64,000 bases of DNA from an uncultured Christensenella sp. (GCA_910583735.1 CAJTXS010000001.1:80402-144401); one strand, 5' to 3'. Positions 29,464 to 55,900 are shown, counted from the stretch's first letter. Numbers and translations: made by a program. The notes: a model not told the origin generated them from the sequence alone.

Positions 29464-29545
29464 GTTTCGTATAGGATAATATTGTAAAATGAGTGTAAAA
29501 GTAAGAGAGCGGCTCATCGCCGCTCCCTATTATAATATCTATTCG

Positions 29546-29770
29546 TTATCTTGCAAGTAATTTCAAGTCGTTAGTAAAGAGAATGGTAATCAAGTCTATT
29601 ACATAGAATATAGGCGCAAGAATCAGGTTGAGCACCGCGCCCAAATAATTGCGACGCATAGCTCTGATCACGATACCCAATATAATATTGGTTACAGGTA
29701 TGATAGCCATTATAAGATTGAGTATCCACGCCATTCCGAAGTAGCCTTTTTCATTTACGTTATGATCCAT
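29546..29770 (-). CDS. Small two-TM membrane protein (74 aa)
   Basis: The start was trimmed to ATG 29770-29768, 10 nt after an AAAGGAGG SD. It has two hydrophobic helices (GMAWILNLIMAIIPVTNIILGIVI; GAVLNLILAPIFYVIDLITILF). Family not recognised. Confidence 0.6.
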   Translation of the reverse strand: MDHNVNEKGYFGMAWILNLIMAIIPVTNIILGIVIRAMRRNYLGAVLNLILAPIFYVIDLITILFTNDLKLLAR

Positions 29771-29968
29771 TAACGATATACCTCCTTTGGTGTACATAGT
29801 ATATTTCAATTATTGATTTCTAAACATATATACTCATTTTATCCATATTATTTGCCGGCGGTGTGACGTCTTTAATGTTAATAAATATTAATACATAATA
29901 TATTTTAACCGAATTATGCGACTTCGTAATATTTATGGATAGGTGAAGAATATTTGCGACTTATTAAT

Positions 29969-29985
29969 TGTATATTATGTGCACT
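29969..29985 (+). repeat. 17-bp direct repeat, copy 1
   Basis: TGTATATTATGTGCACT, identical to the sequence at 30046-30062. Confidence 0.9.
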
Positions 29986-30045
29986 ATCGACGTATAAATG
30001 GTAATTTTTGGCAATTATTAAAGACAGTATCTTGCATTAAATAAA

Positions 30046-30062
30046 TGTATATTATGTGCACT
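30046..30062 (+). repeat. 17-bp direct repeat, copy 2
   Basis: TGTATATTATGTGCACT, 77 bp (start to start) from copy 1. It contains the GTGCAC palindrome. Confidence 0.9.
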
Positions 30063-30945
30063 TTATACGGGGGCGGGATTGATTTCAATATTATGCCGTA
30101 TAATATTGCCTTGATTTATATTGGCGAATATGTCTATCCGAATTTTTGTCCGCGCCATATTATACATATTTAGGCGCAGCCCCAAGAGTTGCGGTTGATC
30201 TATGTACTGCTTTGTTATAATAGGTTTCAAGACGGTAGCAGCCGCATGTCTGTATACAGGTTTAGTTGCTGCCAAAGAGCAAGAAGGCGATAGCATAATT
30301 GCAATTTTTTAAGACGTATATTGCAACAATCCGCGCTTACATACCCCGTATATCGTTTGGTTATTTTATCGAGTGCAACTGTACCGCGTCGGATTCGTGC
30401 ATATTGCGAAATTTTTTGTCGCGCGTATGCCGGGTTCGATTCGTATTGCCCAAGTGGCGATGGCTCCTACGATACGGCAACTGTTTTTTCGATTGTATAT
30501 GCGGGTGATACGGAGTGCAATGCGCTATTTTACAATGGGCGTGCTTGGAGCTGTGCGAGCCCTCGTATATATATCGCCGATTATCTGTCGCGACGTTAAA
30601 ATAAAGTAATTAAGCGGGATATTAAAGAGCTTTTTGCAATAAAAAAACTATAAAATTATTTAATTTATGTGAAAGTTATGAATATTTTGCTGTCTGCATT
30701 GATTACTCACAATTTTGAAAAAAATTGGAAAAATTTACTGCATTTAAGAATTTATACTTCTAAAATGTGATAACAAATTAGATTTTACATAATTTTTACA
30801 TTTGTATTTGCATTTATTTTGCAATGAAAATCACTTTATTTTGTCTCTTGAAATTTCTTAAAATATGTCGATATGGAAGCAAATGTAAATGAAATAGGTG
30901 TCTATTAAGAAGTATTGTGGCTATTTTTCAAATGTAACCGCGGTA

Positions 30946-30974
30946 TTGACAATGCGGGCGCATATTATTATAAT
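30946..30974 (+). promoter_or_regulatory. Perfect consensus sigma-70-type promoter of the giant lipoprotein gene
   Basis: TTGACA (30946-30951), spacer atgcgggcgcatattat (17 nt), then TATAAT (30969-30974). ATG 31026 lies 52 nt downstream of the -10 element. Confidence 0.75.
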
Positions 30975-31025
30975 AATCTAAAACAGGCACGACCTGATTG
31001 CTTACATCGTAAGGGAGAGAAGATT

Positions 31026-31115
31026 ATGGGAAGCAAGAAAGGCAAATTCTTAGCGTTGGCGATTGTGATCGTTATGCTGGTAGCGCTTAGCGGGGCATTG
31101 ATATTGTCCGCATGC
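31026..31115 (+). other. Sec/SPase-II lipoprotein signal peptide of the giant protein
   Basis: The n-region is KKGK, followed by a 20-residue hydrophobic core and lipobox L-S-A-C, with the Cys codon at 31113-31115. Confidence 0.75.
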
Positions 31116-34100
31116 GATTCCGGTGTGACGGTTATTTTCGATGCCGGCGCGGGTACTTTCGAGAGCGGCAACAGCATAATGACGCTTAACAACGTTGCTC
31201 CGGGTACCGTTATTAATCTCAAGGATTACAATCCTAAGAACGGAGGGCAGAAATTCGTCGGTTGGGACGACGAGTCTCTCATGTCGTATACGGACGAATA
31301 TACGATTCCTTCCGACGCCAAAGGAGTCATTAAACTGACTGCTAAGTGGAGAGCGGGTAATTCCGGGGGCGGTTCCGGCGTATTGTCACCGCTATTCTCT
31401 GTGCTTAACAGTATCTCCAAGGGCGACAAGATTAATACTCATATCAAGGGTTCGGGTATTTCCGGCGGTAAAGAGTACGGTCTTGAATACATATCCAACA
31501 TAAGTCGCGGTCTGGGCAATAATGCGTTGGATTACGATTTGGGCTTCCAACTCACCGAAGACGGAACGCCCAAGCTCGGCATATATATCGTTGATATTCA
31601 AGGTGCTGCCGGCGGTCTGTTCATAGACACCAAGCCTTCCGATCCCGATTCCAAGCCCATATATATCGAAGATTTCAATATGGATTATCTCCTCAGCGTC
31701 GCTGAGAAGCTTCCTTCTTTCTTGCAAGAGTTGCTTAATTCCCAGTCCTTGGTGAGCGGTATTATAGACGGCGTAGTTCTCTCCATGTTTATGTCTGTCA
31801 ATACCACTACGAGCGGCAGCGTTACCAACTATGACATTACTATCTCTCCTCTCAAGTTGGTCAACGGACTTACGAGCCTGTTGGAGAATCCTCTTATAGC
31901 AGGCGTTGTCGGCGGATTCCTCAGCAGTATAGACCTCAATCCCTTGCTTACATGGCTTAAGGATAATGTCCCCGATGTGGACTTTATCGTCAGAGCGGGC
32001 GTTAATTCCGCAGGTCAGCTCGCAGGAAATATCGAGCTCGACCTTATCGACAATTCGGTAGGCGAATCCACCTTTACATTTAACACGGCGCAGCTTACGC
32101 ACGGCACATATGACAGCGAGACTCTTTCGCTTGTACCCGATAAGGTAAATAATTATGTGGCTTGGTCTTTGGGAAATATTAAGCTTTCCGCCAATTTGGA
32201 CCTCAGCACAGCGGGCAACAACGTAGACGTAGGCGCTCTGATCAATACATTTGTCCCCGGGACGCTTCCTCAGGGGCTGATATTGCTCGACGCCAACCTC
32301 GGATACCGTCTCGATGCCATTATCGATATAGATATCAAGCAAGCCAATCCTGCCGAAGATAAGAATCTTATCGCAATCGAACTGTATGAGAAGGGTAAAT
32401 ACGGCTCCGAGAATGCGATATTGGGAGTATATTACAGGAACGGCTCGCTGTATATTAACATAGGCAACATACTCAATAAATTGCCTTCCGCAAGCGGCAA
32501 CGGAGAAGTCGCCAAGTTGTGGAGCGGCAAGGGCATAAAGATAAGCGGACTCAACCTTAACGAATTGGTCGGCGCTATTAAGCAGCGCGCCGTCTCGGAG
32601 ATCGATAAGCTGTTCGGCACCGATCACGGCAAGATAGAGCAGTCCGGTATGGAGAGCACGCTTAAGATGCTCACTCAGCACGATTCCGTAATGGCTTTGT
32701 CCGTGGACGAAGAGGGCGAGACATATATCTCTCCCGGCTGGGGCAACTTCATCTCCATGCTGTTTAAGGTATTGAAAATCGACGGTGAATACGTCGATGT
32801 GACCAACACTGCGGACGGCGGAGAGCTTGCGCTGACCATCAATAACAATCTTATCGATTCCATAATGGCTGCGCTTAAGGGGCTTATCCCCAATTTCGGC
32901 GGTATAGATCTGCCCGATATCGGAGAAGGCAAGCTATTTATAAAGGTAAATAAATACGGACTGGAATCTATAGGTATAGATCATACTATAGGCGGTATCA
33001 ACCTCGGCTTGAGTTTGAGCGACTTCTTGCTCTTGCAGCCCATAATGTTCGGCGACGATGACGCGCAGCAAGATTTCGCATCTTACATCGATTCTTGCGT
33101 GGGCGACGAGTCGGGATATACTACGAGCATCAATGAGTTGATTAACGAGGTGCTCTACGGCGGTATTAAGGGCAGCATCAATCTCGATCTGTCGTTCAGC
33201 GGCGGAGAGTACAATTTGTCCGAGCTTCTGTCAATGTTCGGACTGTCGCTCGGCGATATTAAGATAAAGATAGACAATCCGAATGCCAAGATAGCTCTCG
33301 GACTGGATTTCGGTCTCTATATCGATGAGAATAATCCCGACAGAGACAGCGCGCTCTATCTCGAGCTCGTTGCAAGAGAGCCCGTATATCTGGAGAATCC
33401 CGACGGCGGAACGGCGCTTATCAATGAAGGTATTATATTAGGTATATATTTATATAAAGATGCCATCTATCTCGATGCGTCCAATCTCAAGATACTTAAT
33501 CTGGAGATGCCTATCTATAAACTTGATAATGTGGGTGCAGGCTCCGCTATAGAGGCGTTGCTCGCGCAGCTTCCCAATCTCGATCTCAACCTCGACCTCA
33601 GCGGCGTTATCGAGTCCATTAAGGGCAATCCCAATGCCGGGGAAGGCGAGGCTGAAGCGGCTGCGGCGCTTGCGGAGCTCACCAAGGATAGCGGCGGAGT
33701 GCTTTCCACTTCGCAGGTTATGTCCAACTCCGGCGCCATAGCGCTCTATCTCGGCAGCGACGCGATTAAGCTCTCTGCGACGGTAGGCGCAATATTCACA
33801 TTGCTCAGCACCTTCAATGTCAATCTCGGCTTCGATATCAACGACTATATACAGGGCGAGATTCCGCTGGAGATAGAATATAGAGACGGCAAGCTGTCGC
33901 TTAAAGTCACAGCCAATCTGCTATCTACGGTAGACGGTAAAGACAGCAACCTTACTCTTGCTCTCGGCATAGATCTTGCAGATGTCAATATCGCGGGATG
34001 CAAGCAGGAGATTAAGGAGCGAGTCGACAACGTAGGCTCCGATTATATCAATCAAGAGCTCGACGACTATGTCATCAAGGGCTTGCTTAACGCCGTACTC

Positions 34101-37100
34101 GATACTCAGATTTCTATCAATATAATGCTCAAGCAGGGCAGACTCGACGTGCTTAAACTGGTCGATTACTTGCTCACCACGCTCAAGGTCAGCGTAAGCC
34201 TGTCCGATTTGGATTTGGACGGTAGCATAGGTACCGATTCGCTCGAGGCTACGCTTAATATTAAGCTCGCTATGTCCAATTCCGACAATCCTATTATGGG
34301 TATAGAGCTGATTGCGGGCGAGACGGGCAGCGCGGGTGTGTTGTTCAGTCTGTACTTGGATAAGAACAATGCCTATATCGACCTCAATGTACTCGGACTC
34401 GGCAAGTATAAGGTCAGCAATACCGGACTTATGGGTATGCTTACCGACTTGCTCGACGGATTTAGCGAGAGCGTAAGTCTCAAGGGCTTGCTCAACCTCG
34501 ACAGCTTGCTCGACGTAAGCAAGACTATCGCGCTTAAGGCCATCACTTCCGTCAATGCGGGCACTACCGTGGTATGGAACAGATACGGTCAAGCAAACGA
34601 TATATATTACAATGTATACGGCGTTACGCCCGGCGTAAACGGCGCTGCCGATACTGTAGAGGCAATCGCTATGGGCGTAACTCATAACGATGCGTCTATA
34701 TTCGTCGACGGAAAGTTCATGATTGTCGACGCGGACAACAGATACGGATATTACAGAGTAGACGTATGCACGCTTAAGAACGGCAACGAGAAGGTAATCG
34801 TCTCGGCTACTGCGTCTGCAGAAGACTTCGATTATGGCGCGAAGGCTGAGTATAGTAAAGATATCAAGTCTACCGATATATCTTGGAACGTATATAACGG
34901 CAAGTATAAGTACGCCGTAACGCAGATAGGTTCCGACGGACAGAGCAGAGACGTCGATATATCTTCTGCCGTCATCGAAGGCGGAGTATTCAAATTTACC
35001 GCAGACGCTACGGGAGTAGTATCTTATAAGGTAAGAGTATTCATCCCTGGCGAGGATATCACCGTAGATGAATTTACATTCGCAGTAACTAAGGTGGATT
35101 CCGACAAGCCTCAAGAACCCGCAGCTATAGACGTTGCAATCAACGATATCGCAAGGTCCGTATCTTGGAGCGGCGTAGAGGGCGCATCTTACTACGAAGT
35201 ATCCTTGGCGATTGCGGGAGCTGCAGCCGCGGAGTGGACTACTAAAGTATCCGCGGGCGGCAATCTTACAACCAAGTGGTATAACGAGTACAAAAATTAC
35301 TCGATTACAGTCGTCGCTTACGATAAGGACGGCAATAAGATCACCGAAGGCGCATCGAGCACAAGCTATAACATAATCGACGCGTTGCTCTCCGGACTTA
35401 CTATCAACAACGGTATAATCGGACTGGAGATCACGGGCAAAGTATTCGGCGACATACTTGCCAATCTGATAGGCGAGAATTACAGGATTGAGATACTCGA
35501 CGTTGCGCTCAGAGATGTCAATATCTTCACGGGAACGGCGGATCTCGAGTTGAATATCTACGATTCTATAGGTCCCGACGCAGGCAAGATAACCGTGAGC
35601 GCGGGCATAGCCATATCTCCTACAGATGTGGACGCGCTTGCTGCCGATGTTGAAGCGATGAATGCGGAGGGCTCGGGATACTCCGAGATAGACTTCGCTT
35701 TCGGCGGCAATGTCGTCAAGGGTATATGGGATCTCTTCGACGAGGGCGTAATGCTCGGTATGGACCTCGAGATAAAGTTCGCTAAGGGAAGTTACAATCT
35801 CAGCAAGTTGTTCGCTATGTTCGGTGATAATCTGGCAAGCATGCTCGAGAACGGTCCCGTATGGACCTTCGAGGCGGATACATCCGTCAAGCTCGAGCTT
35901 AAGCTCGGTATTATACTCGACGACATTTCCAAGCTGAGCGAGGAGGCGCGTAAGAAACTTCCTCAGGGTATGCTCAAGGCTCCTCAGATAATGTTGAGCA
36001 TAGGATTCCCTCAAGGACTCGTACTCGGCAACGACGTTGCGATCAAGCCTAATTCCTCTATAGACGTATTCCTCAATTACGAAGGCTTGTCGATAGATTT
36101 GTCCGGTATCAGCATACTCGGATTGACTTTACCTAAGTACAGAGCGGAAGGGTTCGACTTCTTCGGCTTCCTTAACGGATACCTGCTCAAGCTCGAGCAG
36201 ATGATAGGCGCTCAGTACAATCCCGACGGATTGGTTATAGACGCCGCTAATTCCTCCGTGATTACATCGGGCGATACATCCGCTCTCAATCTCAAGTGGA
36301 AGAGCTATGTGGGCGCAGAGGGATACAGCTATGTAGTCAATAAGGCGGGCGCGGAATCTTCCGAAGAGGTAAAGCTCGGTAAGGATGCGACATCCGCTAC
36401 CATCGACGTCACAGGATTGAAAGACGGCGACAATGTTACCTTAAATGTGCTCGACACTATGGGCAACGCGTATGCAAGCGCAATTTATTACGCTAAGATA
36501 GTGGACGGCGAGCTAACTTTCGAGCTCAACGTAGGTCAAGCGCGCATGGCAAGAGCACAGGGCGACGACGTATCCTTGATGATAACTAAGGATAAGTTGA
36601 GCCTTATGATTACATCGCAGGCGTTGCTGTCGATAATCAAACTCGTATACGGCGATAAAATCGATATCGATTTGCCCGACCTCGATTTGACGATATTCGG
36701 AGAGATAGGCAATATCGACGGAGTTACCGGAATACTTCTGAAGGTCGTAGGCGACTTGATTAAGCCCGAGGGCTATGTCGGCACCGATCCTACGTTGGAG
36801 ATGTCTCTCAAGCTCTATTTCGACTCGGGCGAAGCGGTCAAAAACCTCAATATAGGCGATAAGTACGCCGCATTCATAGCAGCTGCGGACAATGCGGGCA
36901 GCAAGTTGATATCCGGCTTGCTCGACTCCCTGTTCAATACTTCGTTCAGCCTGTATATAGATTTGGCGGCGGAGCAGGGCTTCGATATAATCGACGTGCT
37001 CAATATGTTTATCGGCGACAAGATAGATCTGTCGACGCTTAACTTGGATACTATCGTCAACAACAATAGCGGTAACAAGCTGTTGGAACTCAAGCTTACT

Positions 37101-40100
37101 ACGTCGGGATCGTATTCGGATTTCGAGCAAGTGGCTATTCTCCTTCAGATTAACTACATGGGTAAAGAGCTTATTGCGCTGGCAGTAAGGGACGGCGACG
37201 CATATCTCGATCTGTCGGGCATAGGCGCCGGAGTGATCAAGGTCACCGATAGCAGTACCCCGCTTACCGCCAACATTAAGAAAATGTTGGACGACATGAT
37301 AGGCAAAATCGAAATCGATATCGAAGAGAAGCTCAACGGTCTGCTGGGCATAGGTAAGCCTCAGCAGGGCAACGTCTCGACTCTTGCGACAGGCGGCGCA
37401 GATCAAGCCGCTAACGCTGCCGCGCCTATCGACACATCTTCTTTGATAGCAGCTATCATCGATATGGTAGTAATCAACGACTCTGTAATTAAGCTGTATG
37501 CTACCAGCGAGATGATCAAGGGCTTGCTCAATCAGTTCTTCTCCATCTCTCTCAACATAGAGCTCAACGGAGATATTGATATATTCAACGGCGAGGCGCA
37601 AGTCAACGTCAGTCTCAAGGATAGCGCAGACAAGGCAATAACTCTGTCCTTGGGTCTGTCTATCAATGCTATGACCAATGCCGAGCTCAGCGCTCTCGAG
37701 CAAGATCTTGACGGCAGAGCGGCGTCGTTCGACGGCGTAGTTATAGATTTAAGCAATATAGTTGGCAGCGTAGCCGATCTGTTGAACGGCTTGGATCTCT
37801 CCATAGAGCTGGACGTCAACTTCGGCGCCAACGACAATGTCAATCTCTGGGATGTAATCGGAGTTATATTGACTTCTTTGGTCAAGGCGGACGGAGCTGT
37901 TAACGACGTGTTCGAAGCTCTCGGCGAGCAAGGCTTCCGCTGGCAGCTTGATACGGCTACGGATATTAACCTTAAGCTGAAACTGGCTACGGACATCAGG
38001 ACTAAGACAGTCAATGGCGAAGAGGTCATAGACGAGGAGACCAGCGCTATCGTAGTCGGACTTATCGCCGGCACGGATTTGACTATAGGCTATGACGCCA
38101 CCGATAACAATCGCGAAGTCATAATCAAGCAGGGCGAGGGCATCTATCTCGTAATCAAGGGCGGCAAGCTCTATATCGACCTCAGCTGCGTACACATACT
38201 CGGACTTACTTTGCCCGTGCTTCGCGCAGATAACTTTGACGTAATGTCTTATCTCACTGGCATTGTCGGCGACGTCAAGCAGGCTGTAGACAAAATCTTC
38301 GGCGGCACAGTCCGGAGTGAGGCGGAAGGCGGCGACGAGGCTGCTACCGTCGGAAGTTCCGAGATGGCGCTTGACGGCGGCTCGGACGGAAGTATCTTGA
38401 TAGGTCAGGATATTACTTTCAGCATAGGACTAAAGGCTGTACTGTCTCTGCTTAGCGAGATGGGATTGGTTGATTTGACCGCGCTTAAGCTCGATTGGAA
38501 TATAGTCGCCACCACAGGCGTGCAGAACGGCTTGCTTAAGATAGCTATCGAGCATAACGGAGAGTCGACTCCTATAATCGGATTTAACGCGGCGCTTACG
38601 CTCGGCGTTAAGTTGCGCGGCGAAGCCGATCAAGAGGCGGACGCGGAGCGCGCCGATCTGTTGGATAAGGCAACAGGCGCCGATGTGAGATACGCGGACA
38701 GCACGAGCAACGTGATAGACGCTATGCTCAACAAGGTGCTCAATACTACGATTAAGCTGGGTATAAGCGCTCATAGCGCTTCCGATAAGTTCAATATATC
38801 AAGACTTCTGTCTCAGTTGATAGGTTTGATTGCTACGGGAAGCAACGGATTGGATAGCAGTAAGGCATTCAATATAGACGTATCCGATCTCGAGCGTCTG
38901 GAGTTGACTATAACGCTTAGCGGTAAGGCGGATAACCTGTCTCAGCTGTCTGCTATGATCCGCATTGATTCCGTATACAAGAACTATCAAGGAGTTGACG
39001 TTAATAACAAGATTCTTGCTATATATGTCGATTCCGGCAACTTGTATGCAGATTTGTCGGCATTGCTCAGTAATGTAAATATCATTAAGATCAACAATTC
39101 CGCAATCATGAATATACTGTCCGACACGCTCAACAAGCTGTTGTCGGGGGTCAATCTCGATCTTAACGATATCATTAATATCAAGCCTAAGGCTCAGCAA
39201 CCCGATGGCGGCGCATCTCTTGCGCCTGCCGCGGCTGCCGATGCCAATGCGCTCGATGTAGCGGAATTGATTAAGAGCGTAGCCAAGATAGTAAGGCTGC
39301 ACAATACTTCCATAGCGCTCGAGGCGAGCACGGATGCGATAGACCAATTGTTGTTCGGCATGTTCGGCATTCATCTCGATGTATTGGATGTTAACGGCGC
39401 CATTTATCTGATTAACGGCAGAGCGGAGCTTAACGCCAATATATACGACTATGACGGCAATGCGCTTACGGTCGGATTGGGTCTTTCTATTGCGGAGAAT
39501 GGCATAGACGAGACTGCGGCTCTTAAGAGTGCTATCGCTCACGCAGAGGCTACCGCGGTAGAGCTTGACTTCACCAATGGCAAGACGCTGGCTCAGACGG
39601 TACTGGATGTGCTCGGCGGAGTGAGCTTGCAGCTTGACGTCAAGGTGCAGTTGCCCGAGGGCGTATTCGGCATAGGCGATCTGCTGAGCGGATTCGGCAT
39701 CGATATAGCCGATGCCAATGCCTTCGAGTTGATTATCAGCGGCGGAGACTTGAGACTCGACGCTTCGCTGATAGCTAAGGCTGCCTTCGACTACGACAAT
39801 CCCAATAATACAACCGTCATGCTGGAAGTCGTCATGAATTCCGACGCGGTATTCGGAGCTGTCGGCGGCGAAGATAATATCGTATTCCACGCAGGCGACA
39901 GGATATTAGGTATATATATTAAGGGCTCCGAGCTGTATGTGGATTTGAGCAGCTTGACGCTTTTGGGTATAGAGTTGCCCGTGTATTATACCGCCAACTT
40001 CAATATCCAAGGCTTTATCAACTATTTACTTAATAAGTTGATCGGCGGATTGGACAGCATGATATTCGGCGAGTTTGCAGTTAATGCCGAGTATAGCGAC

Positions 40101-43100
40101 AGCGCCACCAAGATGGTTTGGAATCAGGTAGACGGAGCGGACGCTTATCTCGTCAAAGTTAACGGTGAGAAAGTCGGCACCGTGCTTGCCGATGCCGAGG
40201 TGGACGGAAAGTATGCGTTTACTCCCGCAGCAGATAAGTTGACAGGCATCTACACTGTAGAAGTAGTGCCTATGGTCAAGAAGGCTGTCGAAGGCTCCGA
40301 GCAGTTCAATTACGTTGAGATGGGCGGACGCATCGGTAAGTATACCAACGCCTTTAATCTGTATACCTCTTACGGCGCGGACGGAAGCGCCAACATCGCA
40401 TGGGATCGTATCAGCGGCGCGCAGTTCTACACCGTTAAGGTTAACGGCGAGAAGATTGCGGACACCGAAGAGACGAGCATCGTCATAGACAATCTTGTCG
40501 GCGGCGAAGTGATAGAGGTTGTGCCTTATAAGACTGTAGACGACGTAGTACAGGCGATTAACGATTATATCGGTAGGATAGTATTCAAGACATCGCAGGC
40601 TCCCGTAAGCACTGTCGCGGGCATCGACGACCTCGATGTCAACGAGCTATTCCTCTTGGGAATATCGAGAGATCAGATTAATATCAAGCTGTCTCTCGAT
40701 GCGGTACAGGCAATCTTGCAGGCGCTCAACCTCGACGTAGCTTTAGGCGGATACGACGCGGTAATCGACATTACGCTTAAGCCCAATCAGGATTGGCTCT
40801 CGCTCAGTTTCGAAAGCAATCTCGGCGAGGCATACGGCGGTACGAATGCTTCGGGCGAAATAGCTTTGAGCGTATTCGATATTTACAACGGAGACGCATT
40901 AGACGGCTTTAAGCAATCTTTGGCAAGCGACTCGATATGGGATATACTTGCCTCTAAGAAAGACAATGCATACAGCAATATCGTAGACGGCTTACTCGAT
41001 AAGATGCTTAATCTGTCCGCGACGCTCGATATAAGTGTGAGCGGAGATACGGCGCTCAATCTAAGGAATGTGCTCAACAGCGTATTCTCTCAGATAGATC
41101 AGCTTAAAGATTTGAGCATTACAGAGGACATCATGCTCGAGCTGTCCGGTCTCGATCTGCAGCTGGCGCTCAATTTGGGCATAGACCTGTCTTCAGTAAA
41201 TAATACGGTAATATCTATAGCGCTCAACGATATGCGCGGCGGTAAGAATAATCTGCTGGGTATACATCTGTTCCAAGGCAAACTTATCATAGATGCTACA
41301 GGTATAGCATTCGGCAGATACGTTATAGATGGCGCGGAGCTGTTCCAAGGTCTGTTCGATATGCTCAACGGCGCTATAAGCGGCTTGCGTAACGCTACGG
41401 ATATGGACGGCTTGCTCGATATGCTTTACGGTCTTGTCGACAAGACTCCCGAGCAGACCGGCGATAGCATTAGCATGGCGGATACCGAAGAAAAGGGCAA
41501 TTTGCCTGCGGGTACGCACAGTATTGCTGTAAGAGTGAGCACTGACGCCAACGCCGGTACGACGACCTTCTCTTGGGATAGCGTTCCTACGGCTATGAGA
41601 TATAGGCTCATGCTGTATTCGGGTTATGATTTGACCAATAAGACAAATCTTATAAGGGAAGCCGACTTCATGCCCGCAGGTCTTGATATCTGCAATACCG
41701 TAAGAGAGACCAGCGTAACATTCAGTACGGCGGCGCTGAACAAGATAGGATTTATCAAAGACTCCATGTCTCCTTTCGACGGCGTGTTGCAGTCGGGATA
41801 TTACTACTTCGTCGTAGAGGCTGTACGTAAGTACGGCGCTGACTCCGTCGAGCCCATTTACAGCGAGGACGGACTGGTTATCAACGGCGGCTATACCAAC
41901 TTCAGCGTGCTCAAGAGCATACTGAGTATGGTTAAGATTAAGAATGATAAGATAAGTCTTACTGCATCCGCTGCGACAATTAATAAGTTGCTTGCGGGTA
42001 CGCTCGGCATCAACTTCGATTGGGCAAGCGTCGTACTCGACATTGATCTCTTCGACGGTATAGGTAATCTTGACTTTACGGTAAGCGACGGCGACAGGGC
42101 TGTAATTGCCGACAATGTAACTTTGCAGAAGAACGCAACTTCAGTAGAGCTCGGTTGGGATACAGTAGAGAATGCCGATTACTATGAAATAAATATTACA
42201 GATATATCGGGTAAGAACAAGATAGATACCGTACAGGTGCATAGCGGAGATATGACCGTAAGCGGCAACAGAGCAAGCTACAGCGTAGATGCGACCGCTT
42301 ATCCTTGGTTGTTGACTAAGGAATTGCGTTACAGAGTAAGCGCGATATTCGACAGCGTAAATACCGCGGTAATCAATCTTACGCTTGCTACCGGCGATAA
42401 CGGTAGGGAGAAAGCCGTCGAGGCAATGAAAGAGAACGGTATCTTGGTTGAGTTCGGTGAAAATTCCGATTATACCATAGCGCCCGAGATTCCTTCGCTC
42501 AGCGAGATTAACGGCGTAAGCATTAAGCAGTTTGTAGAAGGAATACTTTCCGTAGTCAGACTCGAGGCTTCGCTCGATATATTCATCTCGAGAGGCTCGT
42601 ATAATATCAGCTCGCTCATCAACAGTCTGCTCGAGAAACTCAATCTCAATGTAGAGGGCTTGGACGAGTCCGGTATAGTATGGACTCTTACGGACGATCT
42701 TAGATTTACTATAGACCTCAAGTTGCTCTTCAGTCTCGGCGCGACAGCGGAAGATACTAAGTTCGTGCTCGAAGTTTCCAGCGGCGGTCTGTCGCTTACC
42801 GAAGCGGACGGCAGCGTAATAGGCGTCATCAACGAGGGACTGTTGCTCGGTCTGTATTATCAGAACGGTAATGCGTTCGTAGATCTGAGCAATGTGACGT
42901 TGCTCGGTATACAGATGCCTTGCTATACGTTTGATATAGATGTTCACGGTCTGCTAACGGATTTGATAGACAGTCTGTTCAAAGATTTCGACTTCTCCGT
43001 ACTCGGCAAGGGATTGTCGGTCAATGTGGAGGGAAATGCCAACGGCGACAGGTATGCGACTTGGAACAACTACAGCAAGAGCGCAGAGTATAAGGTAGAA

Positions 43101-46100
43101 GTGTTTAAGGCCGTGGATGGCGCGGACGGCGCTCTGTCTTGGGTCAGCGCCGGTTCGGTGACCGCTCCTGCGGGCGCTACAAGGGCTAATATAACATCTC
43201 TCGTAGGCAGAGACAGTCGTTATAAAGTAGAAGTGACGGCATTCGACGCCGAAGGCTCGGAGATAGCTAAAGACGAGAAGATATGCGGCGTAGAGGCGCA
43301 AGAGCAAAGGATGAGTCTTGCAAGCGATATGGATTCGCTCGATATGAGACAGCTGATAATGCTCGGCATCTCTTCGGATAAGTTGCACCTCGAAGTTACG
43401 ACTAAGGCGGTTGCTTCGCTGCTGGCAAGCTTCATTTCCGGCAATGAGACCGTAGCAATGATAACCGATATCCTCGGACTGTTCGATTTGAGGTTGGTTG
43501 GAGAGTGGCAGGCAAAAGAGGCGCTTACGCTTAAGTTGCAGGGCGATCTGTTCAATACCGATTTCAAGCCCGTTGCGGTAGCTTGCGACAATGTAAGCTA
43601 TGTCGTATCGGACGACTTGAGAGGCGTGACATTCACTTGGGACGAGATAGACGCCGCGGACGGTTACGAGTTGACAATTAAGAACAGTTCGGACGTTACG
43701 GTTGCTACAGCCAAGAGCGATACCAATAGCGTATATGTGCCTTTTGACAGTATATTCACTCAAGCTGTGCTTGCTCCTAACGGCGGCAGCTGGAGCGCGG
43801 TCGGAATTGTGGAGAATCCTCTCAATGTGACGCTTAAACTTCACACCGAGAAGTTGCTCAATCCCGACGAGATGGGCAAGGTGCCCGAAGAGATAGACGG
43901 TATACTTGCAGGCGTGGATATCGATAAAGCTAAGGAAGAGTACGGCTCTAAGCTCATTGCCGGCTTGCTCGACAAGATTTATAATCTCGACTTGAGCATA
44001 GCGCTTGATTTCAGTCAAGTGGACGGATTCAGCTTGTCCGAAGTATTGTCCGTAATGGTAGGCAATCTCATACTCGGCGCGACGGGTATATCCGTCGGCG
44101 AGCTTACCGACGCTTTGGATCTGCGTTTGAGCACCGATGCGACCACTGTGGCGCTCGATATCATGCTCAATGTGGATAGAGTGAATCCTGCGGACACGAA
44201 TATCGCCATACAGCTCAGTTCCGTAATCGGCGGATATAATAAGGACATATTGCTTGCGCTCTATATCTACAGCAACAAGCTGGTAGTAGATATGCGCGCT
44301 ATAGGCTTGAGAGCGTACGAGATACGCAATCTCGAGTACATCGTATCGCTACAGGAAGAGTTATTCGGACTGATTGACAGCCTCATCGGCGATATCGAGA
44401 TAGATATCACAGAGGTCATCGGCGGATTGCTCAATCCTAAGAACGATGTCAATGGCGACAATAACGGCGGAGATGTCTCGGATGAGCCCGGCGTTGGCGA
44501 CAGCGCGCTCGGAGAGGAGACGTTGCCTTCGATAGGCGTACGCGTAGTCAACTCCAGAGACAGCGAAGGCAATAGGGTAACCGCTCTTAAGTGGAATGAT
44601 GTAGACGGCGCAGTCAAGTATGTATTGACTATGCCCGCCGAGGACGGCAGCAAGACAGAGATTACATTGAGCGGCAACGAGTACGAGTTCGTATCTTCCG
44701 CTTCCGTCTACGGCAAGCCTTACGAAGTTAAGATAGAAGCATACAATGCCGACGATGTGCTCATCGCGGTAGGCAGCAGAGGCGCCAACGGGGTCATCGC
44801 ATCCCTGCTTAACGCGCTGTCCCTGCACAACTCCATTATCAGACTTGATGTGACGAGCGATATACTGGATACGATATTGTCTACGCTTCTTAAGGATATA
44901 AGCATCAATATGGATCCTATCGATTCGCTGGATGCAAATATAGACATCTTCAACGGCAACGCAGAGGCCAAGATAAATCTTGTCCTCAAGCAAGGCGAAA
45001 CGGGAGCCGTAGTCAACAATCTCGTGCTTGGCGCGACATTGGGACTTGCGATGGCGCCCGAGCTCTATAAGGTAGACAGCACAACGGGTATATCCGATCC
45101 CGATACGGTAATTCAGAAGTCCTTGGATGCAATAGGCGAAGTTACCGTAGTCGATCTCGGAGTCGGCGACCCTGCGGGCAGAATAGCCAACGCGATATTC
45201 AGCGCGCTGTCGACATCTTCGCTTTCGGTAGATATCTCCGTTGCGTTTAACGCGGGTACATACGACCTTGCCGAGCTTCTCAAGAGCTTCGGACTGGATA
45301 TACTCGGCGATACGCATCTGTATTGGACATTCAACCGTGATACGGAGATAGCGCTTACCTTAGAGCTCAGCGCGAGGATTTCGCCCAATGCTTACAATGA
45401 CAGTCTGTTACTGTTTGATATTAAAGCAGGCAACGATATTATCTTCCCTGCCGTAAGTTTGGGCGGTAAGAATTACGGCGAGTTCCGTATAGACGCGGGA
45501 GATTCGATTTTGAGCGTGTTCGGCAGGTCCAACACCAACGGCACCTCTTACATCTATCTTGACCTCTCCGGCTTCAGCGTACTCGGCATACCGTTGCCCG
45601 TACTCAGAGCGGAGTACAACTTCGGCAGGATGATCATCAATGAGATATATGACCTCGCCGCTAAGATAACCGGACAGTATAAGCCCGAGATATTCTACGA
45701 AGCTGACGATCAGGGCAATATGCGCCTATTCTGGGAGGCGAGAGAGTTCGGCGTAGAGCAGATCAAGTATGACTTTAAGGTGGTCAATGCCGATAACAAC
45801 GCAGAGATAGTTAACATCAAGGGCAGCGAATTCCTCAACGGAAGCAATGTAGTGGATACAAGCTATGTTCTCGGTAAAGACAAAGTTGCTACGCGTATGA
45901 ACGTAAGCATTACGGCATACTTTGAATACACTTTGACCGACGGCAAGCCCGCGCGCAGAATCGTTGCGGAGAATACCGCGTTCATTGACTTGTCTTCGCA
46001 AGCCGAAGTAGCAGAGTATAGCGCCGACGATGTCAATAAAGATACTCAGGATAAGGGTCTTGACATACTCGACACTGTTAAGCTCGAGTACACGGGTCTC

Positions 46101-49100
46101 AACAAGGCTCGCGCAAGCTGGCTCGCTAAGGAAGGCGTAGTAGCTTACGAGATCTATCTTGTATCTTCGGGCACGGGCGCAAGGATACCTATGTCCAGAG
46201 ATGTGGCGGAGCAAGGCAAAGCTACAGTCATAGGAGCAGGCAGAGTCGAGGGATACGATACGCTCGGTATTAACGGCGACGGCATCAAGCCCGGCACGGA
46301 AATATCCATAGAGATTGATACTTCTCCGTTGTTTGCGTCCGCAGGCAGCGCGCTCGGCAGATATCAATCGATGTTCGCATCGGGATTGAGCGCCCCCGCT
46401 CCTTCAATAGGCGACGTCAATAGCAGCGAGGATTACTACGGATATTATATAGTTGTCAACTGCTACGGCAATGTCAAGGAGACAGAGGATTCCGAAACTC
46501 CCGCGGTCGATAAATACGAGCTTGTGGCAAGGGGTGCGGCGGACAGCTATGGCGCCGTCAACGTCAACTTTGTTCCCAAGTCCGGAGCTGCGGCAGGTAA
46601 AGGCAACTATATAATCAGCTGGGACAATGTCCCCGGCGCTGTCAGATACAGCGTATTGCCTTACTACTCGCGCAAGAATATTACTTCTGCCGGCATGACC
46701 GTGGATTACATTGCGGTAGGCAAGAGCTCTTCCGCAGCGAGCGGCTACAACTTGAGCGATCTGCTTGTGACGGGCAATTTCGTCAATATATACAATGTGG
46801 ATTACTCGGGAGCTTATAACATAGAGTTGTGCGCATACGATACATACGGCAATATCGTCGGATATAGTGTGGTTACCAACTCCATAAAGGCTAACGGCGG
46901 TAAACTCGTGCCTATGGCAGTGATCGAGATAATAGCGAAGGCGGATCAGTTGGGTATAGTAGTCCAGCTGGATGCTGTAGCGGCTATGCTTGACGCCTTT
47001 GGCGTAAGTCTCGGCTCGTTTGACCTCGGCGCGCTCGATCTCGAGGCTGCTGTCGGACTTAAGACTTATGTAGAACGCGTAGTCAAGCCGACTGATGTCG
47101 GCGCTGATAAAGTGGATAGCGTAGATGTATACGGAGCGCATCTCAAGGGATTGAATTCGGGCTATGAGTATACCGTTAAGATAACGCATACCAATGAAGG
47201 CAGGCTCATCTCAGAGAAAGAGTACAGCTTGAACTCCGATTACAGCGGCAAGATGGATGTCGAGTTTATTATGAATGCGCTTGGCGAATATAACTTCTGC
47301 GTATTTGATAACAGCGGCGCTAAGGTGATTGATTTCACAAGCCGCACGCTCAAGAAGTATTGTCTCGACGTAGTCGGCGACTTGATGCAGAACGTCAATA
47401 CCGCGGGAGCGGTGGTGAACGCGGGCGAAACGAGCGGAAGCGTAACTGCCGCGATTAATTCCGGAGCATTGTCTTACACATGGTCCGCTATCGAAGGCGC
47501 TACCAACTACAGCGTCAGGGTAGATTACTTCAAGGATCTGTCCGTGAGCGGCGCGCCCGATGCGACAGAGACCAAGAGCGTGAGCGGAACATCGATGCAG
47601 AGCTCGTTGAGTCTCGAGCAAGGCTCATATCTCGTGACTGTTACGGCGGGCAACGGAGCTTCGTCGGGTAAGTATATACAGGTGATGTTCACTGTCGGAA
47701 GCAATAAGCAGCTCGCGAGTAACGCAGGCAAGGTGCTCGGACAGATAGGCGTGACTACAGACGGCCGTCTGATATACTGGAACGCTATGAGCGGAGCTTA
47801 TACCTACGGATTGGATATATGCGAGAGAGAGAACGGCAAAATCGTCAAGTCTGCGGTATATGACGGACTTACGGGCACGGTGCACAGCGTTACGCTCAAC
47901 CATGCCGGTTCGTACGATGTGATTGTCAGAGGATACGATGCCGACGGCAATATGTTGCCCGATATCTACAGCGCGCATATCGATGTGGGCGGCAGGTCCG
48001 ATTTTGTCATAAACGCTACTGTATCTTATGACGATATAGTAATAGGCGGCGGAGAGAGCGATTACAACAATCTGAGCAACCTAATTAACACAAAGGCCAA
48101 CGCTTATCACAGCGGCGACTATGCTACGACTGTAAGAATGTTGATGTTCAACTATCTGCAAGATGTGGGACTCGGACTCAAACTTGACCTGTCCGCGACC
48201 CAGACAGTCATCAATATGGCGGATATGATTAACAAGATATTCAACGCCGTCAACGGCACCTCGCCTATAGGCGCGCCTATCAGACTGGATATCAAGGGCA
48301 TACGCGACATGGGTATGACGCTCAATCTTGAGTGGCATCTCGACTATACCCGCAACAGCACCACGCAGATGGTTACCGGTATCAACGGTCAAGGTACTAC
48401 TCTCAAGGTCGAGTTGAACTATTACGAGGGCAACAATACCAAGACATTGCTCGGCTTCTATCTGAAGGATAGGTCCTTCTATATCGCGCTGCAAGGATTG
48501 GGATTGTTCAATATCAAGATGTCGTCCAACAGGATGATCAATAACCTTACCGGTACATTGTACTCCGTGCTCGACAACTTGACTCAGAAGCTGGACGACA
48601 CCATAGACGGGGCGCTTGGCACAGACGCCGGCGACGGTATCGACTTCAGCGTATTGCTCAAGGCTCTCTTGGGCGAATACGCAGAGATAGATCTCGGCAG
48701 TATAATCGTCGGCAACAGCGTTTTGGAAACCGACGAATTGCAGCCTGTGGCTAAGAGCGAATCGTTGCAAGACATGGATATCAGTTATATCATAACCAAG
48801 TTGCTCGGCGTGGTTTCGCTTGAGAATTCCTCGCTGCTTGTCAACGCTACTTCCGCGATAATCGATACGGTATTTGCGGATCTGCTGGGCGTAGAACTCG
48901 GTCTTGACTTGGATCTGTCCGTGCTGGTAGGCATACTTAACGGCGATATCGCAGCCAGCTTGCGTATCGACAACGTAACTATCCAAGCCGAGCTCGATTT
49001 GCACATCAATGACGGCAGCGATTACAGCGGACTCACAGTTCCCAATATGAACTTTATCGACCTCAATGTCGAGCAAAGCAGCGGTACGCAGCTTGCGATG

Positions 49101-52100
49101 TCGCTGATAGCAAGCAGCGGACTCAATCTGTCTATCGACCTCTCCAATGCGTCTGTCGAGAGCATAGCTTTCTACAACTACGATGCGGACGGAGCGTATA
49201 GGTTCGGCTATCCTGCGGCTGTGCGTGTCAGCGTCGAGGCGCTTAACGAAGACCGCACTATATCCGAGAACCTTAACGGCTCCATGCAGGTTGAGCGCGG
49301 AGGCTTGCTTGTCACTTTGGTCGGTATCGATACCAACGAGTATAACACAAAGGGCGCCGGTACGACGTTGCCTTTGGCATACGTGTACATTTCGCCTAAC
49401 GACTCGCTTACGGTTAAGCTGGCTAAGGGATGGTTTATAATCGAGGCAAACGCTATAGGTATTAACGTTACCGTAGACCTCGGAGATAATCTGTATGCGT
49501 CTTCGATGGAGAGCTTGATCCGCAGCTTTGTACCTGCGGGCACTTTCCCCGTTACCATCAGCGTGCCCAACCTCGGTATTATGAATACCTTGGGCGGCTT
49601 GCTCGACAAAGTTATCAACCTTATTATAGGCGACGAGAGCAGCTCGGGCAACACAGGCGACGTAACCGAGGAGGATACTTCTTCCGGTACGGGAGAGACT
49701 GTTGTCGATTACGGCATAAAGGTCTATGCGTACGGCTCCAACAATCCTGTTGTGGAAGGATCTACGTTTAGGATAGAGCATAATCGCGCTACCAACGCAG
49801 ACGGAGTCGCATTCGACGGTTACAACCTTAGAGTTATGCGTGCCGACGGCTACGAATTGCTCAATGTGACTTATCCCGCAAGCGCTACTACAAGCGGCGG
49901 TAAGTACGGATACAACGTCAACTTTAACTGGTATGAAGATTATCGCATAGTAGTCGAAGGATATATGAATAAGACCGGTTTCGATAAGATACTCGGCGAG
50001 CTTGATATATGGGCTTTGCTGGGCGGCAACCGTAAGGGAAGCAATCCTGCGACATTGCCGACGGGCGGCGCGTATCCTACTGCCGAGGCTTGGACAGAGG
50101 ATGACTTCGGTATAACAGCGGCGCTGTCCGGAACGGGTAACTTCAATCTCAGTGTCGACTTCGATACTTACTATCTGAATAAGCTTATCGACGACATAAT
50201 GGATTTGGTATTCGGAGCCAATACGATTCTCGACCTCAGCTCTATGGGACTGAGACATAATTACCTGTCTCACACATGGTGGGATAGGACATCGCGTTCG
50301 TCTACATGGCTCAATACCATGGACTTCGGCAGCAACGGAAGTCGTATGGCTATGCAATTCGATCCTACGTCTACTCTTGACTCTATATCCGTACAGCTAA
50401 TGCCGCTGCTTGCAGACGCACTCGAGTTGATCAATATCAATATAGACGTCAGTGTAGGTCCCGCTATCAAGATTAAGCTTAACGGTCCTGCAATAAGAGC
50501 CGGAGACGACAATCTTAAGTCAAACGAAACAATGGCTAATCTCAACAGAATCTTCATGCATCTGTTGCCTTTTGCGGTGTGGAATACGGCTAGTCTCAAT
50601 GTGTCTTTGATAGACGGCACGATTGCCAATATCTCCTTCGACGGCGAGGACAAAGGTCTTGCGGTGAGAGATGAGAACGGCAGAGTGCTTACGCACGAGG
50701 TACAGACCTTCTACGGTAAGTACAACGAGGGCGAGAGCCGTGACCAGTATTACTACGATACGGGTAAGCCGGACGACTACACCTACAGCAATATGAGCGG
50801 CAGAGGCGGCGTGAGGAAATTGACTTCCAACGGCAGAACTAAGACGTCTACGGTAGTGAGGAACGGCAAGTCTTATACCGCATACGGTTATACCGTAACC
50901 TACAACGCCGTAGGAGTCGCAGGCTCTAACTCGGGCGGACTGCAGTACAGCGGAGCTATCTCCAACACCGCAGGCACGAGCGGAAGCCGTATGAATCTCG
51001 ACTTCACATATGTGCGTACGGGTTCGGCTATCATCAATAGATCTACGCAGAGCGGCACAGGATTCAATACCGGTAGCGACTCCTCGCAGTGGGGTAAACC
51101 TATGGGAACGACGTTTGTCGTCGGACAGAACGACATAGCGCCTTTCCATACCAAGATAGATATCTACAACGGATCCGCGTCTGTAGGCAACTCGTCGACC
51201 ACTACCGATCATACTTCGGGTATAGTGAGTTGGGGTGGATTGCCCGCGTATGTCGAGTATGATCCGCTTGCTATGGGCGATGCATATGCCGCGGCAGACT
51301 ATATGATGAAGAGATACTTCTTATCGGGACTTACCGCGAGATATCAGCTCGGCTCCAGCTTTGCAAGAGGTCAGATAACCTATGCGGTTAACGGCGCGAC
51401 TCTTACAGCTGCTAATCTTGCTTCTGCCCTTAGCTCGTCCAACGAGGTGACTGTAGTGGCAACGGCTGTATTCGGCGGCTCTGTCGGCTCTAAGTCGTTA
51501 AGCATAGTAGTACATCGCAATACGTCCACTATAGTGTCTATCGACAAGGTAAAGATGCATTACTTCGACTCGTTGCCTCAGTATGTGGTTGTGACCACAA
51601 GCGAGGGCAAGCGTAAGAAGTATGACGTGACGACCAACCGTAATAAGGTGGGCGACGAGAATAAAGTCCTGCTTACCGACTACGATCCCGCTACGGTATC
51701 GGCGGCGCAAGGCGCTACGGTAAAGGCTAAGTTGACCTTTGTTGACGGTACGGTGAGCAATCTGTTCGAGATAGAGTATGTAGACTCGACATTGAGCCTC
51801 GAGAACAGCAAGGAGCTTGACCTGTATTCGTTCAACAACATCGACGATGTCGTGAGCGCAATCAACGGAATCAAGGTCACATATGCCGACGGCGACGCAG
51901 TGCTGAGCGATGACATGACGCTCGGTAACGGCGGCAGCGGCAGCAACATGCAAGTATACTCGGCTAAGGCGGGTAGATGGATAGCGCTTGGCAACTGGGC
52001 TAGCAGCGTACTCGATATTAAGGGCGATACGATTTATATCCCCGTATCGATAAGCCAGAATGCAGGCGACTGGGGCAGCGGCAGATTGAGCCAGTCCTCG

Positions 52101-52975: not shown

Positions 52976-55900
52976 ATGAGTAAGAGCAGACGTTATGCTT
53001 TAATAGCGGCGGTTACGGTAGCGGTGCTGGTTATATGCTCCGTAGCTGTTGTCTTACTGACGGACGGTAAAGGGTCGAACGGCGACGGAGGCGTAATCGC
53101 TTCGGGCGCTGCAACGACTGTTAAGACTACAGCCGGCAGCGTTGACAACGATTACTTAGTTAAAGAATTTCTTAAGCTGTACAGAAATCCTCAGGATAAG
53201 ATACTCTCAGACGGCTCTCCCTCCGTTTGGTATACTCAAAAGGCAAATTCTGCTACAAGTATCTATATAATCAATAAGACAGGATCTAAGACTCCCGTTC
53301 CAAATGTTCAGGCAGGACAGCAGGTGCCCTCGATAATCAGCGGTCATGAGTGGTGGGCATTCAAGTCTGGAAGTGTGACGTATGTCGTACCTATAACGCG
53401 CGCGTCGTCCACGTCGATATGTTTTACGCTCGATAATTTCCTTACTACGCCTAATGTATATACTTCCGCCAATACGTACGCGTTGATTGAGGAGGACGTA
53501 ACTTATTCTCCCAGAGTAATCAACAGCGTTCAATATAACGACACTACGGTGTCGCCTTATAACTTCAATGCGACTCTCGACGGCGCGGGACACAAGATAA
53601 CCGCATCCGAAGCATACGAGATGTCTTTGACCATTAACGGCGGAGATGCCGGCTCGAGACTTAATAAGCCTTATATTACTTGGGGTACTCAGGGCGGCGG
53701 CGGATATTCCGATTATCATCTTAATGCGCACAGTATGTTTATAGGCAATATAGGCAGGGGTACGCTTAAGAATTTCACGCTTGACGACGGCGGCTACAAC
53801 ATGCGCATAGTTCAGCACAATAATACTACCGCAGGCGGAGATACCACCGTAGTTAACACGGCATACGGCGCGCTTGTAGGAGTTGCGGGCGTATATAATA
53901 ATAAGGCTGCCGGCGGTACGGACGGCGATCCCAATGATCCTTACGATTATTCCAACAGCGCGCGCTCCAATATCAACAATGTTAATCTGCTCCTTAACGG
54001 CGACCATACTATGTTCACCCGGAATGATGGCATGAATATGGCATCGTTGATTATGGGCGGCGCTGTCGGTTACAACGCCAACTGCAATATCGATAATCTT
54101 ACCGTCACTATCAACGGTAGGATATCTCCTTATGCGTTGAGGCAAGGACGTCCCTCGTTTTCCTTGGGTTTCAAACCCGCTACTAAATACGACATACTCG
54201 GCGGAGTGTGCGGAATATCTGCTTACAGCGGCACATTTAAGAAGGTAATAGTCGCCGGCTCGGGCAATCTGTTCTGCGATTGGTACGTAACCGTAAAGGA
54301 TGCGAGCAGAGTTGCAAACGACTTCGGCGAAGCTGCCGGTATTGTATTCGGTCAGATCATGAAGCCTACTACGGCAGAAGGCGTAATTATAGATTTCCCT
54401 TATAAAAATATTTGGTTCCGCAATATAGGAGGCAGTTCTTCGATATGGGATATTATCGGACTGTTTGTGGGTAGAAAAGGCTCGGTTCTCAACTCTACCT
54501 CATACTCCTTGACATACAAAGATATTTATTTGACAAACAATGTTTTTGCGGGTATTAACGATGCTAATTTGCCGGCTAATAAATACGATGCGGTCGGTAA
54601 CGGAACGTCTTATACATGGGAGCCCGGTTATATGGGTAAGACATATCTTGACGACGGTACAGTTACCGATCACCATAGCGCGGCTACCAGCATAACGATG
54701 CCTATTAGATTCAATACGGATGAGCCGGATGGCACGCCCTTTACGGTATGTTCGGATGATATTACCTCGATCGGCTTCTCGCAAGATGCCAACTATATGA
54801 TAGAGATCGCAGCTAACGGCAACGGTATCGTATGGGACGCTACATGGAATAACAAGAATGGCACGGTATACAATACCGCGACATCCGGACATTCGGTATA
54901 CGACCCGGTATATGTGCAAAATACGGCTACCGGAGTTAAGCTCAAGGCTTACGGACAGTTTTCGGGTACCAACTCCAACGGTCGCAATCTCGTCCTTAAC
55001 GTATCCAAGGGCGATTCTGCCACGTATTCGTTCGACAGCGGCAGTATAACTAAAGAGTATAACGGCAAGGCTATCGATTATCCCGACCTTAGGGTCAAGA
55101 TGGCGAGCAACAACAGCTACAATCAAGACTTCCAACAGATATTTAACGGCAGAAGCGGCGTAATGATGCACCTTCCCGTCGACGATCAGACGGTAGGAGC
55201 TGTAGGTCCTAAGATATTGGATTCTTCAGGCAACAATGTATTCTCCGGAATATATAACGGAAAGACATATTCGTGGCAAGGCTCTATGGACGCCAACAGA
55301 AACAGTATCGGGCACGCATATTTTGCCAATATGTACTCGTCTGTGCAGAAGTATATCCCTTCTTCCGGTCTGTATACCAATGTAGACGACAGCGATAATG
55401 CTACGGCAGAGTCGAGCAGGAAAAAGGCTAAAGACGCTGGTAAATATAAGTTTAACGTAACTGCTGCCGGCGCATATATAGCGATGAGGATAGGCACAGG
55501 GTCTTCTACATATTACATGTTGCTGACTCCCGACGGAGATTCGTCATTCGAGTATGTGGTCTCGCCCAAGTCCCTCGGAATCAATCTCGAGACGCCTGAT
55601 ATCAACTACAACGGCAATAGCGTCAACTTCCAGTATGCCGGCGACAACCCTACCGCAAGGGCAAGATATTCGCTTACGGGAATATTGGCGGGAGACGATG
55701 TTAAAGCCGATCCTACCAAGATAGGTTATTACAATTCCAACGGCACGTCTATTACGCAAGCCGTCGATGCGGCTACATATAGATTGAGTGTAAAAGGTCT
55801 TGTAGGCACCGACGCAAGCAACTACACCATCGACGCTATACAGAACTTTACCGTTCATCCGCTCAATGTGCAGGTTTCGCCGGGTTCGATTGTAATTGAT

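Follow-up and report, generated by a model that had tools for sequence, protein, structure and literature searches.

The window analysed is a stretch of 64,000 nucleotides (nt) from an uncultured Christensenella sp. (GCA_910583735.1 CAJTXS010000001.1:80402-144401), with positions counted from its first letter. The element in question is a giant gene on its + strand, which encodes a protein of 7,241 amino acids (aa; 31026..52751, start ATG 31026) containing an array of repeated domains of about 280 aa. One open reading frame (ORF; 30915-52751, +; mechanical start TTG 30915) holds the whole repeat region. ATG 31026 was taken as the real start because a promoter-like site (TTGACA-17-TATAAT; 30946..30974, +), about 50 nt 5' of it, lies 3' of TTG 30915, and because the gene call for the same gene in the NCBI metagenome-assembled genome (MAG) GCA_949840785.1 also gives 7,241 aa. 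The promoter-like site is a perfect sigma-70 consensus (12/12 positions matched). In many independent assemblies, close relatives of this gene are uninterrupted, with products of 7,104-7,128 aa.

The original prediction for this region had described three recurring motifs: a 'core' in two alternating flavours (type I and type II, here A and B), a first segment (seg1) and G-x-Y-N-L-S. All 13 cores, six seg1 and four G-x-Y-N-L-S motifs were found where it had placed them and in the frame of the one ORF, except that the coordinate of the seg1 at 35404, itself present, was one base out of frame. The spacing between type I cores, given as 1.8-2.9 kb, was 1764-2937 nt when measured from the checked coordinates. 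Near-identical DNA repeats were absent, as had been noticed: direct repeats of 30 nt or longer were all at most 73% identical to the reference copy, and Tandem Repeats Finder reported nothing. Self-BLAST of the whole protein gave the diagonal only, and the protein was therefore compared in chunks; the chunked comparison revealed the expected periodicity, with 47 non-redundant off-diagonal high-scoring segment pairs at E < 0.01 (best 3e-13). Hidden Markov models (HMMs) built from four copies recovered the left-out copies (E 3e-17, 2e-15, 2e-17 and 1e-10). HMMs built from foreign homologues only matched 14 (A model) or 13 (B model) segments of the giant at E ≤ 1e-3, with zero matches in its reversed sequence and in 20 shuffles of it. 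Six contiguous supermodules aligned collinearly over about 570 columns, and by this alignment and the family profiles the supermodule that had been proposed to recur about six times is a two-half element of about 570 aa, iterated six times.

The family-wide profiles of the two flavours (famA and famB, from which the E-values per unit are given below) were homologous (hhalign 99.6%, E 1.1e-22) and aligned end to end over 248 collinear columns with 14% identity. Given this homology, the true repeat unit is about 280 aa. The two halves and their alternating flavours stand as first described, but the halves are homologous copies of one unit rather than unrelated. When supermodules and single units were aligned jointly, A was also superposed on B, a hint of the same homology.

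The array of the giant can be written b0-(A-B)x6-a7, with 12 full units, one half unit and one head fragment, all on the + strand. The twelve full units span 32748 to 48608 and, together with the half unit and the head fragment, make up most of the 7,241-aa protein; units of the same flavour were 21-29% identical and adjacent units only about 14%. The array begins with the half unit b0 (32118..32471; famA 3.4e-11, famB 7.2e-12), which consists of the core beta-meander only and was also detected by HMMs built without window sequences. The core at 32418, listed earlier among the others, is present and belongs to this N-terminal half unit. Supermodule 1 comprises A1 (32748..33617; famA 2.7e-73) and B1 (33675..34514; famB 1.9e-57), and supermodule 2 comprises A2 (35373..36197; famA 4.4e-52) and B2 (36543..37337; famB 4.4e-56). 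Supermodule 3, with A3 (37443..38306; famA 2.5e-54) and B3 (38361..39179; famB 9.1e-46), is without inserts and was chosen as the AlphaFold target. It is followed by A4 (39267..40049; famA 1.2e-64) and B4 (40620..41420; famB 1.5e-57). Unit A5 (41910..42998; famA 2.5e-46 across the insert) is split by a beta-rich insert of about 90 aa, and B5 (43326..44423; famB 1.6e-16 and 9.7e-39 for its two pieces) by an insert like fibronectin type III (Fn3). The last supermodule comprises A6 (44793..45662; famA 5.4e-59) and B6 (46887..48608; famB 5.4e-13 for the head and 8.7e-47 for the body), the latter split by several inserts that include Fn3-like ones. The head fragment a7 (48789..49004; famA 5.3e-06) ends the array; the seg1 found at 48822 is thus real but belongs to a seventh A unit that is truncated to its head.

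Inserts of about 90 aa with a W..GA..Y signature are located both between and within units. Their Fn3-like nature, suggested at the outset, found support in a profile of 10 motif-defined inserts, the best PDB matches of which were proteins with fibronectin type-III domains (7jgu, E 3.9e-4; 7jgt, E 2.7e-3). Single inserts gave nothing above threshold in Pfam, with scattered PKD and Big_13 hints only. By motif and profile, Fn3-like domains were assigned on the + strand to the end of a beta-rich cluster between supermodules 1 and 2 (35124..35402, the last domain in the cluster at about 34527-35372), between A2 and B2 (36255..36533) and, as a pair, between A4 and B4 (40077..40637). By motif, one was assigned before A6 (44550..44828, +), two in the large cluster of about 45702-46889 between A6 and B6 (46077..46856, +), and two within B6 (47439-47717 and 47736-48014, +). 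The insert within B5 (43596-43874, +) lies in a hairpin loop equivalent to that of A5, the insert of which (ORF aa 3732-3821) is in the hairpin loop of the N-terminal subdomain and is Fn3-like by eye. The A5, B5 and B6 inserts all occupy this same N-terminal hairpin loop.

The domain of about 280 aa is an undescribed family, without a match in the libraries searched. The module had been called unassigned, and it stayed so against Pfam-A, NCBIfam, PDB sequences and, with Foldseek, the structures of PDB and BFVD. Pfam-A 2025 and NCBIfam r20 gave nothing for the unit in the giant or in 27 family supermodules (the latter at E ≤ 10), and PDB sequence profile searches with the unit reached E 0.15 and 0.36 at best. 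An AlphaFold2 model of the supermodule from a 27-sequence family alignment had a mean predicted local distance difference test score (pLDDT) of 61.5 and a predicted template modelling score of 0.57; an earlier run with the six internal copies only was too poor for use (pLDDT 41.5). The C-terminal beta-meander of each unit was well predicted (means of 10-residue blocks 66-89 in A and 69-87 in B). With 28% helix and 32% strand, the model is of the mixed alpha/beta kind, its beta-meanders flanked by amphipathic helices, and it did not support the beta-rich rod or solenoid first envisaged. In each modelled unit a hairpin and a helix precede a three-stranded meander; two to four helices come next, then a long meander with the 'core' hairpin, and last a long helix. 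Foldseek with this model of one supermodule, a check proposed with the prediction, gave 0 matches in PDB at E ≤ 1e-3 (template modelling (TM) score about 0.1). A single match in BFVD (E 8e-4) was rejected as noise (TM score 0.09). The D-x-D-x-F-N-G stretch of the A units ('GDIDIFNGEA', 37570-37600) showed a weak similarity to the calmodulin EF-hand (E 0.15); the value is not significant, and a calmodulin/EF-hand identity for 'DIDIFNG' was rejected.

The giant begins with a type II (lipoprotein) signal peptide as read from its sequence (MGSKKGKFLALAIVIVMLVALSGALILSAC; 31026..31115, +; lipobox L-S-A-C). A positively charged n-region, a hydrophobic h-region and a lipobox follow one another as MGSKKGK-FLALAIVIVMLVALSGALI-LSAC, in agreement with the rule [LVI][ASTVI][GAS]C within about the first 40 residues, and a lipobox was present in 44/49 long M-starting family members (at residues 14-49, mostly about 22-30). 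The giant is thus probably a lipid-anchored surface protein, with lipidation and surface exposure both predicted. Its acidic and Cys-poor composition (D+E 12.9%, K+R 6.9%, 15 Cys in 7,241 aa) is typical of an extracellular protein, and calcium binding is possible because the whole protein is strongly acidic. At the other end the protein terminates in …YEGYSFKQAFSITKDASSLF*, with no LPXTG and no hydrophobic tail, the marks of sortase-anchored giant adhesins (SasG, Ebh-like). Giant adhesins of the RTX/BIg type (LapA, MpIBP) were not indicated either, with no HemolysinCabind and no Big-type array in the Pfam scan of the giant. Such adhesins leave the cell by type I secretion and have RTX nonapeptide repeats at the C-terminus and arrays of BIg domains of about 100 aa, compared to the mixed alpha/beta unit of 280 aa here. 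A Big_4-like immunoglobulin-like (Ig-like) segment lies near the C-terminus (52227..52304, +; Pfam PF07532, E 8.6e-06, 25.6 bits vs a cut-off of 22.1), and four relatives had weak Big_4 matches at the corresponding position. Neither the N-terminal 576 aa nor the C-terminal 1,248 aa matched any PDB sequence when searched separately.

An exhaustive HMMER search of 1.84 billion cluster representatives, with a profile of the six supermodules freed of Fn3 inserts, found the family to be rare (64 proteins at E ≤ 1e-3, 40 of them at E ≤ 1e-30). Nearly all members are 2,000-7,800 aa long. Their most common architecture is b-A-B-a, a frame common to most members and including the b0 and a7 ends of the giant. 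The lineage of the window has (AB)2, (AB)3 or (AB)6, another lineage has 4-9 A units followed by a single B, and distant members of 6,500-7,800 aa repeat little besides the core half unit. In the distant lipobox proteins P0049, P0055, P0058 and P0061, mostly only the C-terminal 'core' half unit was recognised, in about 8-12 repeats, and one of the four is named 'carboxypeptidase-like regulatory domain protein [Clostridia bacterium]'. Because distant members show mostly the core half unit, the core beta-meander may belong to a superfamily that reaches beyond proteins with the complete 280-aa unit.

A conserved C-terminal module (…F-D-P-Y-x-x-N-K-L-I-D-D-V-M…F-G…N-Y-L…W-D-R) is common to all members. 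In the giant it was located at 50052..50774 (+), as …F-D-x-Y-x-x-N-K-L-I-D-D-x-M…F-G…N-Y-L…W-W-D-R, by jackhmmer across the family. Its motif was back-translated into a degenerate DNA pattern and used to scan one genome per GTDB species. The scan, which answered the call for a taxonomic distribution, returned 23 loci and placed the family only in Christensenellales MAGs: 22/23 loci were in such MAGs (named Christensenellaceae, Christensenella sp., Candidatus Ornithoclostridium or uncultured Clostridia), and 22/22 were confirmed by A, B or C-terminal HMMs. The remaining locus, in Pedobacter, was not confirmed by the HMMs. A scan of GTDB representatives with a single protein as query found no close relative, the DNA pattern matched five contigs only in the Joint Genome Institute (JGI) metagenomes, and cluster mates of the window's neighbour genes are named '[Clostridia bacterium]'. 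Two family members were found on different contigs in several Christensenellales MAGs (L012/L023, L013/L016, L014/L024, L015/L030), and the family therefore has paralogues within genomes.

A second giant gene (52976..64000, +; at least 3,675 aa, running off the window), with an N-terminal membrane anchor, follows the first as a probable operon partner. No terminator-like site was found between the two genes, and the second giant ORF had no Pfam match. Four related loci have one or two giant genes on the same strand, 13-25 bp after the lipoprotein giant, in 4/4 cases. The downstream giants of these loci are 1,837-3,064 aa long (two cut at the locus end), with a membrane anchor at the N-terminus. 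MBG_2 and MBG_3 matches are on record for one of them, a second had a weak MBG_3 match, and the others have none.

The giant is most readily understood as a surface protein with an N-terminal lipid anchor and a stalk of variable length (probability roughly 60%), a function that we infer from the features above taken together. The protein would be exported and would stay attached by its N-terminal lipid anchor to the cytoplasmic membrane, on the outer side, and the domain array, decorated with Fn3-like domains, would act as a long acidic stalk. The number of units would set the length of the stalk, which would carry the conserved C-terminal module and the Ig-like domains away from the cell. The giant would work with the one or two giant membrane-anchored proteins encoded directly downstream, and its likely role would be in adhesion, aggregation or surface-layer building.

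This reading draws on the combination of the lipid-anchor signal, extreme length, acidic Cys-poor composition and varying number of units with the tolerated insertion of whole domains, the dissimilarity of neighbouring units, the distal Ig-like segments and the giant membrane-anchored neighbours. Fn3-like domains occur between units as well as in the hairpin loop of A5, B5 and B6; a passive spacer would tolerate them, and their presence supports such a spacer. Neighbouring repeat domains are known to diverge as a rule, and the identity of adjacent units (about 14%), compared to that of same-flavour units (21-29%), fits this rule. Several observations weigh on the other side. The fold was only moderately predicted, and pLDDT fell below 50 in the N-terminal third of both units. 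LPXTG or another classical wall anchor is absent from the giant, and no adhesin-type domain besides the one short Big_4 segment was above the curated threshold in Pfam. The downstream giant of the window had no BLAST similarity (E ≤ 1e-5) to the downstream giants of the related loci. Finally, a mere spacer would not usually be as large as 280 aa or contain 4-5 helices, and each unit may therefore have a binding activity of its own.

Taken further, this last point would make each unit of about 280 aa a module that binds a glycan, a protein or the surface of a partner cell as its ligand, and the array a multivalent binder instead of a passive stalk. The unit is large and mixed alpha/beta, its C-terminal beta-meander is well conserved, and its core has an invariant D, S and P; sialic-acid utilisation genes adjoin the locus both here and in the related P0019 locus, and the best (non-significant) Foldseek matches were folds in which a sheet wraps a helix, such as hot-dog and helix-grip. 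However, no significant match to any binding-domain family was found, the conserved positions are mostly hydrophobic and turn residues typical of a structural core, and the number of copies varies freely, with whole Fn3-like domains accepted in loops. A binding array is thus an unlikely explanation, though the one that retains most weight beside the stalk.

Cultured Christensenella species flocculate, and Methanobrevibacter smithii is held within the flocs (PMC7002349). Christensenella minuta stains Gram-negative and has no lipopolysaccharide (LPS) or outer-membrane genes (PMC11448272). Flocculation and an atypical envelope would make a large surface apparatus plausible. On a quite speculative and improbable reading, the lipoprotein and the downstream giants might build the outer, non-LPS layer of the atypical, 'Gram-negative-like' Christensenellales envelope. 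They might instead form long tethers or conduits, rooted in the membrane, by which partner cells (for example Methanobrevibacter) are kept in flocs; either way the 280-aa units would act as a new extended scaffold or hydrophobic conduit.

At a slightly lower level again, and very doubtful, is a continuous hydrophobic groove or tube of the kind formed by AsmA/TamB/YhdP, bridge-like lipid-transfer or TULIP proteins, through which the units would move lipids or other hydrophobic molecules outwards. The likeness to AsmA-like/TamB/YhdP and to eukaryotic bridge-like proteins lies in a very long and modular protein with its N-terminus at the membrane and with long, two-faced strands in which hydrophobic and polar residues alternate; Christensenella also has an atypical envelope, described with a Gram-negative cell wall structure (PMC11448272). 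However, AsmA-like/TamB/YhdP proteins have an inner-membrane transmembrane helix, and the giant has a lipoprotein signal (L-S-A-C) in that place, with about 28% of its modelled residues in amphipathic helices, enough for covering the sheets, and with units interrupted by Fn3-like domains. No AsmA, AsmA_2, TamB (DUF490), DUF748 or Chorein_N match was found (giant at E ≤ 1, 27 supermodules at E ≤ 10; none in NCBIfam), Foldseek against PDB was without a match, and hhalign of the family profile against E. coli TamB b4221 gave a probability of 0.3% (E 0.23). C. minuta, a cultured relative and not this MAG, lacks LpxABCD, LptA and BamA (PMC11448272), and since it has no LPS or outer-membrane genes no second membrane is known that would need supply. 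The AsmA/TamB-like fold, which the original prediction had itself called the more speculative option, was thus not supported.

A chance origin of the periodicity, by compositional bias or because short hydrophobic motifs happen to recur along a lengthy beta-rich protein, is refuted. In its favour are the short, hydrophobic and degenerate nature of the motifs and the lack of a repeat at the DNA level, but the six supermodules align collinearly and in full length, independent HMMs reach E 1e-55 with zero matches in the reversed and shuffled controls, and the same units are present in 64 foreign protein clusters.

Among known systems, the giant resembles staphylococcal SasG/Aap as a long surface stalk of two alternating, related domain flavours. 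In SasG/Aap the number of repeats varies between strains and sets the reach, and neighbouring domains are dissimilar. The E-G5 repeats of SasG/Aap are about 128 aa and form a single-layer beta-sheet, whereas the unit of the giant is about 280 aa and mixed alpha/beta; the anchor of SasG is a C-terminal LPXTG, compared to the N-terminal lipobox of the giant, and no sequence or fold match linked the unit to SasG/Aap (Pfam; Foldseek vs PDB). Surface lipoproteins of Mollicutes, such as Lmp of Mycoplasma hominis, have an N-terminal lipid anchor and an array of large, diverged, surface-exposed repeats. Lmp-type proteins share both traits with the giant but are much smaller, and none of the Mollicutes repeat lipoproteins was among the 64 matches of the exhaustive profile search, with no homology detected. 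The 'Hodor' megaplasmids of the gut encode secreted, uncharacterised proteins longer than 7,300 aa, co-transcribed with an adjacent second giant gene (about 2,642 aa; PMC12934698). These giants have MBG as well as S-layer domains, and their anchoring is presumed to be by sortase (PMC12934698), whereas the giant of the window has neither domain and has a lipobox instead; MBG matches occurred here only in the downstream partner genes of some related loci, unlike in the 'Hodor' giants themselves. Identity with the 'Hodor' proteins was rejected, as they are a different family.

The repeat unit is a new domain family within a familiar object, the giant repetitive bacterial surface protein, and by itself reveals no new biological principle. 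Less usual for such a protein are the N-terminal lipid anchor, the large alpha/beta repeat unit and the block duplication of the AB pair. Few gut lineages show as consistent a link to host leanness as Christensenellales, the surface of which is, to our knowledge, hardly described. The family offers a domain for structure solution, a candidate for an aggregation or adhesion phenotype, and a marker motif for metagenomes.

Elsewhere in the window, two large ORFs (1469-4687, +, 1,072 aa; 13639-16620, +, 993 aa) lie 5' of the giant gene. Both products are named 'hypothetical protein' in a related Clostridia MAG, and the 993-aa product had no Pfam match. A sialic-acid utilisation cluster (19320-24505; BNR sialidase, NanE epimerase, ROK kinase and NanA lyase) is followed by a tyrosine integrase (23570-24505), and in the P0019 locus (L010) sialidase, NanE and ROK genes lie just 5' of its giant gene. 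The genes 5' of the giant vary by locus. Two loci have a two-component system there, one has a sigma factor together with an RsgI-like anti-sigma factor, and the window has a MarR regulator. The region 28897-31026, covering about 2 kb 5' of the giant gene, has a G+C content of 0.40-0.42, compared to about 0.49, and in GCA_949840785.1 it contains a MarR-family gene and two small ORFs on the minus strand.

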